Shown piece by piece: positions 1 through 4,030 of a stretch of 4,030 nucleotides of DNA (within the stretch, counting starts at the first letter, position 1; each line of letters opens with the position of its first letter). The position numbers were made by a program, and so were the translations under genes. The notes below the pieces were generated by a model that made no database searches, was not told where the DNA came from, and was given only the letters and a program-made list of their open reading frames with translations. Origin of the DNA: a virus (taxonomy: Duplodnaviria; Heunggongvirae; Uroviricota; Caudoviricetes); IMG/VR virus record IMGVR_UViG_2675903505_000004; one strand, written 5' to 3'.

Positions 1-77
1 GCCACCGTGTATTTCTGGTCAACAACCAGTTGAGCGGATTCGCGTTTAAACTCTGCGCTAAAATTTCTTTTTTTCAT
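1..77 (-). CDS. insN: IS911 OrfA (InsN-like transposase regulatory/DNA-binding subunit), N-terminal 25 codons only; continues past position 1
   Basis: Revcomp of 1-77 translates [25 protein letters not shown], which matches the N-terminus of IS911 OrfA as I remember it. Start ATG is complement of 75-77. Confidence 0.8.
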
Positions 78-113
78 TGGAGCACCTGTGTTGTTCTGAG
101 GTGAGCATATCAC

Positions 114-149
114 CTCTGTTCAGGTGGCCAAATTCAGTGTGCCACTTCA
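114..149 (-). repeat. IS911-like terminal inverted repeat (IRL), 36 bp
   Basis: Revcomp of 114-149 aligns with 3971-4006 at 24 of 36 positions, including 8/8 terminal bases TGAAGTGG and a shared GGCCACC core. This is the imperfect-IR pattern typical of IS3-family ends. Confidence 0.75.
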
Positions 150-334
150 CCCATAATGGGCTTTTAATCCTATCGTTTATTGCTTGCATAGTAGAATCTA
201 ACCATCCATCACTCATAGCTAACCCTCGGAAATCTTACATTTCTGTCTATCATAACCACTAGCATCACCTTTAGGAACCATCTGAAACGGGAGGTGTATT
301 TAGACCTTGCTAATCTTAGACAGCCGCCCGGTTC

Positions 335-598
335 ATGCATCACGTCCACACAGTGAATGGTCTGAAAACATCAATGTCGCGTAAAGGTAACTGTTACGAC
401 AACGCTCCGATGGAAAGCTTCTGGGGAACGCTGAAAAATGAGAGCCTGAGCCACTATCGTTTTAATAACCGGGATGAAGCCATCTCAGTAATACGGGAAT
501 ACATTGAGATTTTCTACAATCGTCAGCGTCGTCACTCTCGTCTGGGGAATATCTCCCCGGCAGCCTTCAGGGAAAAATATCATCAGATGGCTGCTTAA
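335..598 (+). pseudogene. IS3-family transposase (OrfB, DDE integrase core) C-terminal fragment; not IS911
   Basis: Translation contains SMSRKGNCYDNAPMESFWGTLKNE and EYIEIFYNRQRRHSRLGNISP, the conserved C-terminal block around the catalytic E of IS3-family OrfB. Only about 85 codons are present; frame is open from 314 but recognisable homology begins near 345. No upstream catalytic domain, so it is a remnant. It differs from the IS911 OrfB C-terminus as I recall it (GNCWDNSPMERFF). Confidence 0.8.
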
Positions 599-838
599 AA
601 AAGAACAAATGGTAGTGTCCGCTATTGCCAGTACACCTCACAACGCCATCCTGACAAGCGTTTTATCTTCAACGGGAATGAGATATGGAAACGTGGAGAA
701 TCAACCACAGAGTATACCCGCGCACACCAGCGAACAATCAGACGACTGCGCAGACTCATCGCCAGGAAACAGTATACAGAAAAATGGTTCAGAAAATATG
801 ACACATGGAGCGCCGGATATTACGAACTGATGGCAACA
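599..838 (+). pseudogene. Possible 3' remnant of a truncated gene (79 codons, no start codon), basic C-terminal tail
   Basis: Frame +2 is open from just after the transposase-fragment stop (596-598) to TGA 836-838 and encodes ...NGNEIWKRGESTTEYTRAHQRTIRRLRRLIARKQYTEKWFRKYDTWSAGYYELMATKPF with no internal Met until the last few codons. Protein-like composition but no family recognised. Confidence 0.2.
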
Positions 839-910
839 AAACCATTCTGACGTAAACGAAATTAACCATGACGCAATTAAATAAGGCAAGCCGAATACAT
901 CAGGAGGACC

Positions 911-1099
911 ATGAACATTTATTTCAGAATAGTTATATCACTGGCAATTATCGCATGTATTTACGGATTAATCGTTCCGGCCCTCATATCAATGAAGGAT
1001 ACGGTAGCAGTGATTTCTGGCTTTGCTCTGGCGTGTCTGACCCCGCCCTGCATTTATGCCATTTATAAGGGTCTTTCTTTTTCTAAGGATAAAAGATGA
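911..1099 (+). CDS. Small membrane protein, 62 aa, two predicted TM helices with basic C-terminus
   Basis: SD-like AGGAGG at 903-908 then ATG 911. Two hydrophobic segments (RIVISLAIIACIYGLIVPALI and VAVISGFALACLTPPCIYAIY) separated by a short polar loop. Stop TGA 1097-1099 overlaps the next gene's ATG (ATGA at 1096-1099). Confidence 0.55.
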   Translation: MNIYFRIVISLAIIACIYGLIVPALISMKDTVAVISGFALACLTPPCIYAIYKGLSFSKDKR

Positions 1100-1923
1100 A
1101 AAAAGTTATTCCTGCTTTAGCCCTTGTTCTGCTGACCACCGGACTTGTCGGTTGCGATCGCGTTGAGCCTGGTAATGTTGGCATCAAGGTAAACAAACTG
1201 GGCGACGATAAAGGCGTCGGAGAAGTGGTCGGTGTTGGGCGCTACTGGACGGGATGGAACACTGAGGTTTACATCTTCCCGACCTTCAAACAAATGAAGA
1301 CCTACGATGAGCCATTCAGCTTCCAGATGAGTGACGGTACAACCATCGGCTATCACATCGGCGTGGCCTACAAAGTTGATCCATCCAAAGTTACCACAGT
1401 CTTTCAGACCTACCGCAAAGGCGTGGACGACATTACCGACACCGACCTGCGCCAGAAGATAGCCGACGCACTCAACCGACTGGCCAGCAAAATGACCACC
1501 GACAAATTTATCGACGGCGGCAAGTCTGAGCTGCTGGATGCAGCTCTTAAAGACATTCAGGAAGAAATGACGCCCATCGGTATTCAGGTAATGAGCCTCT
1601 CATATGTGGGTAAGCCGGAGTACCCGCCTACTGTTATCGACAGCATTAATGCCAAAGTCACGGCGAACCAGAAAACCCTGCAATGCGAGCAGGAAGTAAA
1701 ACAGCGCGAAGCGGAAGCCAACATGTTGCGCGCGGAAGCTGCCGGACAGGCAGATGCGATTCGCACAAAAGCCCAGGCCGAAGCCGATGCTATTCGTTTA
1801 CGCGGTGAAGCTCTGCGCCAGAACCCAAACGTTATGGAGCTGGAAGCCATCAACAAGTGGAACGGTACACTGCCGCAATACATGACCAGCGGTGCCAACA
1901 CACCATTTATTCAGGTTAAGTAA
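1096..1923 (+). CDS. SPFH/band-7 (prohibitin/HflC-like) domain lipoprotein, 275 aa, predicted inner-membrane-anchored and periplasm-facing
   Basis: N-terminus MKKVIPALALVLLTTGLVGC is a signal peptide with lipobox LVGC; the residue after the Cys is Asp (CDRVEP), the classic inner-membrane retention signal. The body has an SPFH-like core followed by an Ala/Glu/Arg-rich coiled coil (REAEANMLRAEAAGQADAIRTKAQAEADAIRLRGEA) as in HflC/HflK/prohibitin C-termini. SD AAGGA at 1085-1089. Confidence 0.8.
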   Translation: MKKVIPALALVLLTTGLVGCDRVEPGNVGIKVNKLGDDKGVGEVVGVGRYWTGWNTEVYIFPTFKQMKTYDEPFSFQMSDGTTIGYHIGVAYKVDPSKVTTVFQTYRKGVDDITDTDLRQKIADALNRLASKMTTDKFIDGGKSELLDAALKDIQEEMTPIGIQVMSLSYVGKPEYPPTVIDSINAKVTANQKTLQCEQEVKQREAEANMLRAEAAGQADAIRTKAQAEADAIRLRGEALRQNPNVMELEAINKWNGTLPQYMTSGANTPFIQVK

Positions 1924-1930
1924 TACATAT

Positions 1931-1951
1931 GCCCGGTATTACACGCCGGGC
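1931..1951 (+). promoter_or_regulatory. GC-rich stem-loop in the SPFH to ORF6N intergenic region (6-bp stem GCCCGG/CCGGGC, 9-nt loop)
   Basis: Inverted repeat at 1931-1936 and 1946-1951 read directly from the sequence. It is not followed by a T-run, so it is more likely an RNA processing or stability element, or a partial attenuator, than an intrinsic terminator. Confidence 0.3.
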
Positions 1952-1966
1952 TGTCTGGAGATAAAA

Positions 1967-2716
1967 ATGAATACTGTAACCATCAACAACAAACAGTTTC
2001 CGGTAATCGAATATCGCGGTCAGCGTGTTGTGACGCTGGCGATGATTGATGAAGTCCACCAGCGACCGGAAGGAACCGCGCGTGCAGCATTCAACCGAAA
2101 CCGTGAGCATTTCATCAGCGGTGTGGATTATGCCGAATTAGGTGCGGACGTAATACGTACGGACCTCCCGGAAGGAACATTCTCTAAATTTGCACCATCG
2201 GGGATTGTACTTTTTGAATCAGGTTACCTGATGTTGACGAAGCCATTCAATGACGCCCTTGCCTGGCAGGTTCAGCGCGAACTGGTTAACAGCTACTTCC
2301 GCACTCGCACACCGCTAACGGAAATCGAGATGATCGCTGCGATAGCCGCCGACGCTGTTCGTCAACAGAAGCGCCTGAATCATGTGGAAGAACAGCTCGA
2401 AACAGTCACAGAAGCGGTGGAAACCATCAAACGCGGAAATATGCGCGCCGGATATGTCGGTTACCGCCAGGTGGTAGCCAAAAGTGGAATGAGTGACACC
2501 AAGTGTCGGAATCTGGTGAACGCATATCAAATTCCTACAGACACCCACGAATTCATGACTCCGGACGGTCTGTTGTCTCGCAGGGCTATCGTCGAGCTTG
2601 AGCCATTTATGGCGGCGTTCCACCAAATGATGTCAGAGGCTGACCCACGCGGCACACGCTGGTATCACCCGAAGATGGGGCTTTTCCAGGTGATCGGATG
2701 GGAGGATAAAGCATGA
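1967..2716 (+). CDS. ORF6N/KilA-N-like DNA-binding domain protein (phage antirepressor-like N-domain) with coiled-coil middle and uncharacterised C-terminal domain, 249 aa
   Basis: Start chosen at ATG 1967 (GGAG at 1957-1960, 6-nt spacer) rather than the upstream in-frame ATG 1892 that overlaps the SPFH gene. N-terminus MNTVTINNKQFPVIEYRGQRVVTLAMIDEVHQRPEGTARAAFNRNREHFISGVDYAEL fits the ORF6N/KilA-N pattern. Stop TGA 2714-2716 overlaps the next ATG 2713 (ATGA). Confidence 0.65.
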   Translation: MNTVTINNKQFPVIEYRGQRVVTLAMIDEVHQRPEGTARAAFNRNREHFISGVDYAELGADVIRTDLPEGTFSKFAPSGIVLFESGYLMLTKPFNDALAWQVQRELVNSYFRTRTPLTEIEMIAAIAADAVRQQKRLNHVEEQLETVTEAVETIKRGNMRAGYVGYRQVVAKSGMSDTKCRNLVNAYQIPTDTHEFMTPDGLLSRRAIVELEPFMAAFHQMMSEADPRGTRWYHPKMGLFQVIGWEDKA

Positions 2717-3282
2717 TCATCCAGTCAAAACTTATTCGCGCCGCTCTGGTGTGCGCTGCTAAAAACGACGTTCGTTATTACCTGAACGGTCTTCACATCA
2801 CGCCGAAACATATTGAGGCAACCAATGGTTCCGTGGCACTGCGCATGGCTCACGGCATCCGGACGAAGAAAAACATCATTGTCCAGTTCGAAGGGGGCGT
2901 CCCGGCCAAAGCCGAAACGACAGAGCTGATTTTTAGTAAAGAGCCGATCGCTGTTCATCGCGACCAGTTTCAGCGACGACTGTCCATTACCGGCATTAAA
3001 CTGGTGGACGGTTGTTTTCCGGATTTGGATCGCATCATTCCGAAAAAGTTTGACCGCTGTACTCACCCGGTGCTCCAGGCGGGTTACCTGAGTTATCCAG
3101 AGAAGATGTTTGGTCGTGAGCGTAAATTTATTCCCGTCCAGTTACGTCCCTCCGGTGACGGGCAAGCGGTCAGAATTCAGTTTGATTCCATCATCAACTC
3201 AATGTATGGCAATCCTGAATTTGTTGTGATGCCTTGTCGTGATCATGGCGATTTCAACGTGGCTCAGGAGCATCCGGAATGA
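2713..3282 (+). CDS. DNA polymerase III beta sliding clamp (DnaN) domain II-III-like protein; truncated clamp homolog lacking domain I, 189 aa
   Basis: Three blocks align with E. coli DnaN as recalled: AKNDVRYYLNGLHI vs AHQDVRYYLNGMLF (domain II), IKLVDGCFPDLDRIIPKK vs SKLVDGRFPDYRRVLPKN (domain II/III junction), and EFVVMPCR vs AYVVMPMRL (extreme C-terminus). The domain III equivalent is shortened. Own SD GGAGGA at 2701-2706. Stop TGA 3280-3282 overlaps the next ATG 3279. Confidence 0.65.
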   Translation: MIIQSKLIRAALVCAAKNDVRYYLNGLHITPKHIEATNGSVALRMAHGIRTKKNIIVQFEGGVPAKAETTELIFSKEPIAVHRDQFQRRLSITGIKLVDGCFPDLDRIIPKKFDRCTHPVLQAGYLSYPEKMFGRERKFIPVQLRPSGDGQAVRIQFDSIINSMYGNPEFVVMPCRDHGDFNVAQEHPE

Positions 3283-3401
3283 AAATCGAATACCAGGACG
3301 CCGCAGGAGGTGAATCAATGAGCTGGCCTGATGCAATCGTAACTCTGGGGATGGTATTCGCAGTAGCGTTTGTTGTGTACTCGATTTGTCGATGGGGATA
3401 A
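3279..3401 (+). CDS. Tiny single-TM membrane peptide (40 aa from ATG 3279; alternative start ATG 3318 gives 27 aa)
   Basis: Not in the supplied ORF track (too short). Translation MKIEYQDAAGGESMSWPDAIVTLGMVFAVAFVVYSICRWG, stop TAA 3399-3401. ATG 3279 is ATGA-coupled to the clamp-like gene with AGGAG at 3266-3270; the internal ATG 3318 is preceded by a strong AGGAGG at 3305-3310. Hydrophobic core LGMVFAVAFVVYSI. Confidence 0.3.
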   Translation: MKIEYQDAAGGESMSWPDAIVTLGMVFAVAFVVYSICRWG

Positions 3402-3405
3402 CCAC

Positions 3406-3648
3406 ATGTTCGCTTTGATTCAACGCGGGCAGATATACACAGACAGAGCCGGATACCCAGTAGAAATTACTCGCAGTACTGAGCACTCAGTGTTCTTTCG
3501 GAGGATGGACGGACGTACCGGGCGAGTACGCATCGGTGAATTCAGTAGCCTGTTCGAGCATATTGACCACCTGGAATATCACAAGATTCTGGCTGAAACA
3601 GAACAAGAAAAGCACCTGAAGAAATTACGCGCAATGCAAAGGAAGTAA
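3406..3648 (+). CDS. Small phage-type protein, DUF4222-like, 80 aa
   Basis: Start ATG 3406 (MFALIQRGQIYTDRAGYPVEITRSTEHSVFFRRMDGRTGRVRIGEFSSLFEHID...) preferred over the track's ATG 3370, which would overlap the upstream peptide. The spacing of YxDxxG, V.IT, V.F.RR and GEF...F resembles DUF4222 proteins from lambdoid prophages as I recall them. Stop TAA 3646-3648. Confidence 0.45.
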   Translation: MFALIQRGQIYTDRAGYPVEITRSTEHSVFFRRMDGRTGRVRIGEFSSLFEHIDHLEYHKILAETEQEKHLKKLRAMQRK

Positions 3649-3651
3649 AAA

Positions 3652-3798
3652 ATGAATAAAGCGTTTGAGCTATGGGTCCACCAGCGTTACGGCAACCACT
3701 ACGACCTGACGCGAGATGTTGACGGTTTCTACTGTCGTGAAATTGTGAAACGAATGTTTGAGGTCTGGTGCCACTGCCGTGGGCTGAGTGTTGTGTGA
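3652..3798 (+). CDS. Small Cys/His-containing protein, 48 aa
   Basis: Not in the supplied ORF track. SD AGGAAG at 3638-3643, then ATG 3652, only 3 nt after the upstream stop. Translation MNKAFELWVHQRYGNHYDLTRDVDGFYCREIVKRMFEVWCHCRGLSVV, stop TGA 3796-3798. Possible metal ligands C28, C40, H41, C42. Confidence 0.3.
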   Translation: MNKAFELWVHQRYGNHYDLTRDVDGFYCREIVKRMFEVWCHCRGLSVV

Positions 3799-3806
3799 GG
3801 TAATGC

Positions 3807-4004
3807 ATGGGCAATGTGATTCAACTGGCTCCCAATGAATGGGTTTGTGAAAGCGTTCTAATCGCAATTACCGGGCTCAAACCAGGCACAATTCTTCGGA
3901 CCCGGAAAGAATGCTGGATGGTTGGAAGAGAGTATATTCACGTATCACCAGACGGTAATCCAAAGCCTTCTGAAGTGGTCAACAAAAACTGGCCACCGAG
4001 TTAG
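3807..4004 (+). CDS. Excisionase-like (phage Xis/DUF1233-like) protein, 3' end disrupted by IS911-like insertion; chimeric ORF whose last 10 codons and stop are IS-derived
   Basis: SD GAGG at 3797-3800 then ATG 3807. Translation MGNVIQLAPNEWVCESVLIAITGLKPGTILRTRKECWMVGREYIHVSPDGNPKPS resembles excisionase-like small DNA-binding proteins of lambdoid prophages (recalled motif TGLKPGTI...RK.CWM.GREY.H..PDGNPKP). From codon 3972 onward the reading frame lies inside the IS inverted repeat (EVVNKNWPPS, then stop). Confidence 0.5.
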   Translation: MGNVIQLAPNEWVCESVLIAITGLKPGTILRTRKECWMVGREYIHVSPDGNPKPSEVVNKNWPPS

Positions 4005-4006
4005 AG
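3971..4006 (-). repeat. IS911-like terminal inverted repeat (IRR), 36 bp
   Basis: 24 of 36 positions identical to the revcomp of 114-149, including the terminal TGAAGTGG and the GGCCACC core. Confidence 0.75.
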
Positions 4007-4030
4007 TTTTTCCAGTATCGATTTTCCGAT
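3971..4030 (-). mobile_element. IS911-like (IS3 family) insertion sequence, partial: IRR end; element body continues beyond window end
   Basis: 3971-4006 reads TGAAGTGGTCAACAAAAACTGGCCACCGAGTTAGAG, the imperfect inverted-repeat partner of the element end at 114-149. The outer tip is at 3971 and the body extends rightward, so the element is in the same (minus) orientation as the left copy. Confidence 0.75.

Follow-up and report, generated by a model that had tools for sequence, protein, structure and literature searches.

The Stx2e-converting phage phiP27 has a recognised integration site at yecE (PMC6256387), and the gene order in phiP27 and in E. coli prophages is xis, int, att and then yecE. 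Rac XisR (YdaQ) of E. coli K-12 belongs to the same Pfam family as the phiP27-type excisionase and is encoded at the same position, directly upstream of the integrase. XisR induces Rac excision and binds attR (PMC4632033). It is full length, has an intact intR alongside and shares ~29% identity with the phiP27-type protein. The role in excision and att binding has been shown for Rac XisR only, and the phiP27-type protein is a putative excisionase. In Shigella, IS911 and IS600 are among the five IS types that have expanded in all members of the genus (Hawkey et al. 2020, PMC7373316). Both disrupt genes and give rise to deletions between their copies, pseudogenes and deletions of this origin being the norm in Shigella, and a large share of the insertion sites is common to S. 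flexneri lineages (PMC7373316).

The stretch of DNA analysed here (the window, 4,030 bp) is the entire contig LAHX01000239.1 of the S. flexneri draft assembly GCA_001017165.1. Very probably, it carries an inactive excisionase gene that forms the right margin of a heavily decayed, phiP27-like lambdoid prophage at yecE in S. flexneri, where the gene was cut short in an IS911-associated deletion. A 65-aa ORF with an ATG start is located at 3807-4004 on the plus strand (translation MGNVIQ...NPKPSEVVNKNWPPS). Its native part, xis', occupies 3807-3970 on the plus strand and comprises codons 1-54 and two bases of codon 55 of an excisionase pseudogene of the phiP27/XisR type (DUF1233); every alignment of intact relatives to the window ends at 3970. 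The next 36 bp (3971-4006, minus strand), tgaagtggtcaacaaaaactggccaccgagttagag, agree at every letter with oligo IRRa, the published 36-bp right inverted repeat (IRR) of IS911 (PMC2909936). The third base of codon 55 (tct, 3969-3971) is supplied by IS911, and codons 56-65, which encode the tail EVVNKNWPPS, are IS911 sequence, with the TAG stop at 4002-4004 inside the IRR (tail and stop at 3972-4004, plus strand). The first-pass annotation of the window had described an xis-like frame that runs across an IS tip at 3971 to this TAG and gains an IS-encoded tail, and both points are borne out by direct reading of the frame and by the identity with the IRR. The three frames that can enter the IRR tip give an immediate TGA, 10 codons and 23 codons, so that the 10-codon read-through of the chimeric ORF is no more than a chance by-product of the frame.

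Beyond the IRR, positions 4007-4030 (minus strand) belong to the IS911 interior at the 3′ end of orfB, where the contig end cuts the element. They match four S. flexneri loci (L003, L004, L007 and L009) at 100%, reaching locus position 10224. The right end of this IS911 is also identical at 59 of 60 bases with the annotated IS911 of E. coli FDAARGOS_944 (L002), which is described there as 'IS3-like element IS911 family transposase, programmed frameshift'. The identical 65-aa product is found on 285 contigs named Shigella flexneri, complete chromosomes included; its presence there and in seven complete genomes rules out a draft-assembly artefact at 3971. Among 5,426 complete E. coli genomes, no site covers at least 80% of a 151-bp query for the xis'::IS911 junction.

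The chimeric ORF matches Pfam PF06806 (DUF1233, putative excisionase) with 80.5 bits (cutoff 22, E=7e-23) and PHROG 539 'excisionase' with E=1.3e-27, both of which support its earlier assignment to an excisionase family. The PF06806 match spans profile positions 1-55 of 70 only, and NCBIfam has no model that matches either the truncated or the intact Xis. An intact 78-aa protein in E. coli STEC799 is identical with the native part of the window ORF at 54 of 55 residues and continues past codon 55 as SECMYNRKAIDAWVASMKNKQPR (residues 56-78). When this protein is aligned with the phiP27 Xis, all 77 residues of the alignment match (coverage 99%), as do all 78 with the excisionase of phage PhiR49_2. 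Intact homologs are 78-82 aa long, and an alignment of 26 family members reveals a conserved C-terminus (S56, Y60, N61, A64 and W68); the window ORF lacks this block and has the IS tail in its place. The earlier statement that xis is truncated is therefore upheld by the alignment to intact homologs that had been proposed as its check: the missing C-terminus amounts to 23 residues, that is, the last 23 codons relative to the 78-aa homologs. The single residue at which the native part differs from the STEC799 protein is at codon 32 of xis' (3898-3900), an A32T change in the predicted second helix, at a column that is invariant in 22 intact homologs. This change would fit relaxed constraint on a pseudogene, a single change being weak evidence.

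An AlphaFold model of an intact homolog, for which a shallow alignment of 22 close relatives served as input and whose confidence is moderate (mean pLDDT 67.8), has a strand at 12-14, helices at 15-22 and 26-35, strands at 43-46 and 57-61, and a helix at 62-74. Residue 55 is placed in the loop preceding strand 57-61. In a structural search with this model, the best match is the putative excisionase 2KVV (E=2.5e-4, TM 0.67), and TorI (1Z4H) is also recovered, more weakly than 2KVV. A PDB sequence search likewise gives 2KVV as its sole match (E=8e-4), its JmjC matches having been set aside as noise. Because residue 55 lies in the modelled loop before strand 57-61, the cut would fall in the wing loop of a winged-helix fold, and the last (third) beta-strand and the C-terminal helix would be lost. 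Since the predicted strand 3 and C-terminal helix are missing and there is no int or att to act on, the 65-aa product is most likely the non-functional product of a pseudogene. A lambda Xis that ends at residue 55 remains able to bind DNA, and by this analogy the 65-aa product may possibly retain some DNA binding.

IS911 sequence is found at both ends of the window. The left end of the element lies at 1-149 (minus strand), with the tip of the left inverted repeat (IRL) at 149 and the orfA start at 77 reading leftward, and is 100% identical to the IS911 of FDAARGOS_944. In comparison with the seven complete S. flexneri genomes, window positions 358-4030 correspond to locus positions 6552-10224 (100% identity in L004), and positions 1-357 correspond to locus positions 11265-11621 in five of the seven (100% in L004), with equivalent positions in L003 and L009. 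The two IS ends in the window (1-149 and 3971-4030) are the two ends of one ~1.25-kb IS911 in all seven complete genomes (10165-11413, 1,249 bp, in L004), and the separate right IS copy that the first-pass annotation had assumed does not exist. The element extends rightward from 3971, and the gene calls in L004-L006 place its orfA and orfB on the minus strand, the transposase gene being called at 10173-11341 on the minus strand with a 389-aa fused product (L005 and L006). The operon is antisense to the transposase genes, as had been noted from the window. Two IS ends on one short contig can thus belong to a single IS copy, which is a pitfall in the reading of draft contigs. In the complete chromosome CP020086 (L009, ~10225-13534), the IS911 copy is ~2.27 kb longer than those of the other strains and contains a gene for a 507-aa protein with RVT_1 and GIIM domains (reverse transcriptase, group II intron maturase), which suggests that a group II intron has inserted into this IS911.

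On the far side of IS911, positions 150-357 (plus strand) are, in the complete genomes, the start of an element gene and, after it, what is left of yecE. A WP_001279596.1-like hypothetical gene is represented by its first 22 codons at 150-216 on the minus strand. According to the annotation of E. coli NT1F10, this gene closes a ~12-kb element with a serine recombinase, by which yecE is split, and the far flank has the same arrangement as the right end of that element. The part of yecE that has been retained, its 3′ part, starts at 313 (313-357, plus strand; L004 from 11577 onward, equal to yecE from position 10181 of locus L001). The 5′ part of the gene is gone, the sequence from window position 313 beginning ~430 nt into yecE, and downstream of the truncated yecE are yecN, cmoA and cmoB. 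Matches of 97.6-99.5% to the 150-357 region are seen in the 12 E. coli genomes listed of 48, annotated as 'hypothetical protein' and 'DUF72'. A second chimeric ORF of 52 aa is present at 58-216 on the minus strand, in which 22 codons of the WP_001279596.1-like gene are followed by the left inverted repeat of IS911.

IS911 is flanked by TTC on one side and CCC on the other. Because there is no 3-bp target duplication, the best reading is that IS911 marks a deletion junction rather than a simple insertion. Had IS911 simply inserted, the rest of xis, int and attR would be intact beyond the IS, and the split xis alone would lock the prophage. Exactly such a case exists in the mlrA prophage of E. 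coli FDAARGOS_944, in which a GTA duplication is present and the C-terminal half of the gene and int follow the IS. At the S. flexneri locus, however, a simple insertion is hardly credible, as the target duplication is lacking, all seven complete genomes have the unrelated gene start and the truncated yecE beyond the IS, and no int, att core or xis 3′ end occurs within 10 kb. A 1.85-kb segment of STEC799 that runs from the 3′ end of xis through int and attR into the 5′ part of yecE gave no BLASTN match in the seven 20-kb S. flexneri loci (+/-10 kb). The phiP27 att core TTAACTGCGTG follows int in the two intact E. coli prophages, but neither the window nor any of the seven loci contains it. Given their absence over 10 kb to each side, the xis 3′ end, int and att core have most likely been deleted. 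It had been suggested that the native C-terminus, int and att were displaced beyond the IS and that their remnants might be sought there; the far flank contradicts this, and the DNA beyond the IS holds no int or att remnant within +/-10 kb in the seven complete genomes.

A more distant displacement could have come about by inversion between inverted IS911 copies, with the xis 3′ end, int and attR moved to a remote chromosomal site. Such an event would be compatible with the many IS911 copies and the IS-mediated rearrangements of Shigella chromosomes (PMC7373316), and also with the +/-10 kb scope of the search in which int and the 3′ end of xis were missing. Against it, the far flank consists of the yecE 3′ part and yecN-cmoA-cmoB, the normal neighbours of int, in their normal orientation. 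A local deletion is far more parsimonious for this reason, and we consider the inversion very unlikely.

The local deletion can be placed in a proposed history of the locus, the order of which we infer from the junctions. IS911 would first have inserted into xis behind codon 55, its transposase genes facing in the antisense direction. Afterwards, a deletion would have extended from IS911 to codon 22 of the last gene of the neighbouring serine-recombinase element, either by recombination with a second IS911 copy or as an IS-promoted adjacent deletion. This step would have cost the locus the end of xis (23 codons), int and attR, as well as the 5′ part of yecE. The outcome would be a single IS911 between two truncated genes, each of which reads into an IS terminal repeat up to a chance stop (EVVNKNWPPS and its stop at the IRR, and the 52-aa ORF at the IRL). 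The ancestral side-by-side arrangement at yecE that this history presupposes is put together from different E. coli strains, not from one genome.

Early-left ('b-region') genes are found upstream of xis' at 641-3806 on the plus strand, as identified from ORFs, Pfam and PHROG matches. They encode a small membrane protein, an SPFH lipoprotein, an ORF6N anti-repressor-like protein and a 189-aa beta-clamp-like protein, together with a 40-aa ORF, a DUF4222 protein and a 48-aa ORF. This region is collinear, at ~93.7% identity, with prophages at yecE (L001 and L012) and at mlrA (L002). The collinear early-left genes, the phiP27-type xis at their end and the location next to yecE-yecN-cmoA identify the remnant as a phiP27-like prophage. 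The 189-aa protein (2713-3282) is called 'beta clamp domain-containing protein' in some RefSeq records and matches the Pfam profile for the central domain of DNA polymerase III beta below threshold, at 17 bits vs a cutoff of 27; its strong match to PHROG 3007 'RusA-like Holliday junction resolvase' conflicts with the beta-clamp annotation. PADLOC assigns no defence-system family to any protein of the window.

To the left of the early-left genes, positions 358-640 (plus strand) are the 3′ end of IS600, comprising the orfB C-terminus with rve_2/rve_3 domains and the right inverted repeat, and are annotated as IS600 in relatives. The full IS600 (L004 5571-6834) is flanked by TAT and CAA, with no target duplication. 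The genes to its left are RusA and Q, which lie on the opposite strand, and a few tail genes, with an IS110-family element between Q and the head-tail genes. There is no immunity or replication region between the early-left genes and RusA/Q, which are separated by IS600, and the DNA left of IS600 has no similarity to the repressor/regulatory regions found upstream in relatives. IS600 marks a second IS-marked deletion junction, at which the immunity/early-promoter region of the prophage has been removed. The remnant falls short of a complete inducible prophage: it has no int and no attR, its immunity region is replaced and there are large gaps among its structural genes. The first-pass annotation had called the prophage excision-defective, or 'locked in', as a result of the truncated xis. 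It is correct that the element cannot excise, but the xis truncation is not the cause; the defect is overdetermined, because int and attR are missing and the immunity region is replaced at IS600.

The 65-aa chimera might instead be a retained, functional DNA-binding regulator, and read-through of its operon might damp the IS911 transposase by antisense. The ORF still has its start codon, preceded by a Shine-Dalgarno-like GAGG motif, as well as the portion of the fold that forms the helix-turn-helix, and it is identical across the 285 contigs. The operon runs antisense to orfAB, and no terminator-like site is predicted on the plus strand in 3807-4030. Such S. flexneri-wide identity, however, is expected from recent common ancestry alone, A32T affects an otherwise invariant residue, strand 3 and helix 3 are missing, and the partner int and att are gone. 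The antisense effect is opposed by the deletion of the native early promoter region and by the promoter prediction, a simple scan of the window giving 0 sigma-70-like sites vs 4.6 expected in shuffles. A hybrid outward promoter was also considered and rejected: TTGACC in the IS911 IRR faces outward, and by eye no good -10 partner is found in the xis' flank. We give very little credence to a functional chimera, and any antisense damping of transposition would be speculation drawn from the orientation of the genes. Rather than as a protein of 65 aa, the ORF is best annotated as a pseudogene fragment ('excisionase, partial'). At NCBI, a 55-aa product is already labelled 'excisionase family protein, partial [Shigella flexneri]', and several sources list the chimeric ORF as an ordinary 'excisionase' or 'DNA-binding protein'.

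Four independent IS insertions have been found in the xis family, at codons 49-68, including IS911 at codon 55 in S. flexneri and at codon 49 in E. coli FDAARGOS_944. In Citrobacter freundii (L016 3190-3280), an IS911-like element with the tip TGTAGTGGTCAACTAAAACTGGCCAC follows W68 of xis in the same orientation. In E. coli (L017 3160-3409), an IS66-family element with the tip GTAAGCGTACAGCC follows xis codon 57, and a TnpA-like ORF comes next. The three IS911-type insertions share one orientation. It is conceivable, though very unlikely, that the 3′ third of xis is a recurrent and perhaps favoured IS target and that an IS in xis is then a common first step in locking prophages. Because our search for IS-hit xis genes was biased toward proteins that retain the N-terminus, we make no claim of a hot spot. 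Similarity between the target and the IS911 ends was tried as a cause of the repeated insertions and dropped, as the resemblance is loose and was seen by eye only.

The contig has one further joint of its own. At 357/358, the truncated yecE flank (L004 11621) is joined without homology to an internal point of IS600 orfB (L004 6552), and both this junction and the resulting 87-aa ORF (335-598) are found in this contig only; other draft contigs with xis' are ~3.33-3.39 kb long. Set against the complete genomes, the contig looks as if it contained the new joint that a tandem duplication or circle of 5,070 bp would produce. The junction could reflect a real 5.07-kb tandem duplication or a circular form carrying xis'-IS911. 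Other possible origins are a further rearrangement (a second deletion) together with a misjoin at a repeat, and a chimera of the assembly.

The closest described gene to xis' is the excisionase of phiP27 (P27p02, NP_543054.1; also WP_000528718.1, 'excisionase family protein'), whose first 55 residues are the same except for A32T. The upstream neighbourhood in phiP27 is also the same as in the window (the SPFH lipoprotein, DUF4222 and others), as is the chromosomal locus, yecE. In contrast to the phiP27 protein, the window copy is without residues 56-78 and has 10 IS911-encoded residues instead, and the int and att that follow xis in the phage are absent at the window locus. The nearest counterpart of the junction itself is xisR::IS911 in the mlrA prophage of E. 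coli FDAARGOS_944 (I6H01_RS04685 / RS04695, L002 9169-10675), in which IS911 has the same orientation as in the window and lies ~20 bp upstream of the position equivalent to the window insertion, the gene being annotated as an 'incomplete' excisionase. That insertion is simple, with a 3-bp duplication (GTA) and with both gene halves and int kept, whereas the window IS911 lacks a duplication; the truncated xisR frame stops at once on the TGA of the IS tip, whereas the window frame runs for 10 codons. The two insertions arose independently, and they differ in both prophage and site.

Because the xis'::IS911 junction occurs in none of the 5,426 complete E. coli genomes (0/5,426), it could serve as a lineage marker. 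The locus also provides a worked example of how IS911 and IS600 together turn a phiP27-like prophage at yecE into an immobile remnant. As a process it is ordinary IS-driven prophage decay, already known and already annotated. Among the described cases of IS-driven decay in Shigella (PMC7373316), the window locus is a specific instance of the same kind, one that the searched text does not single out.
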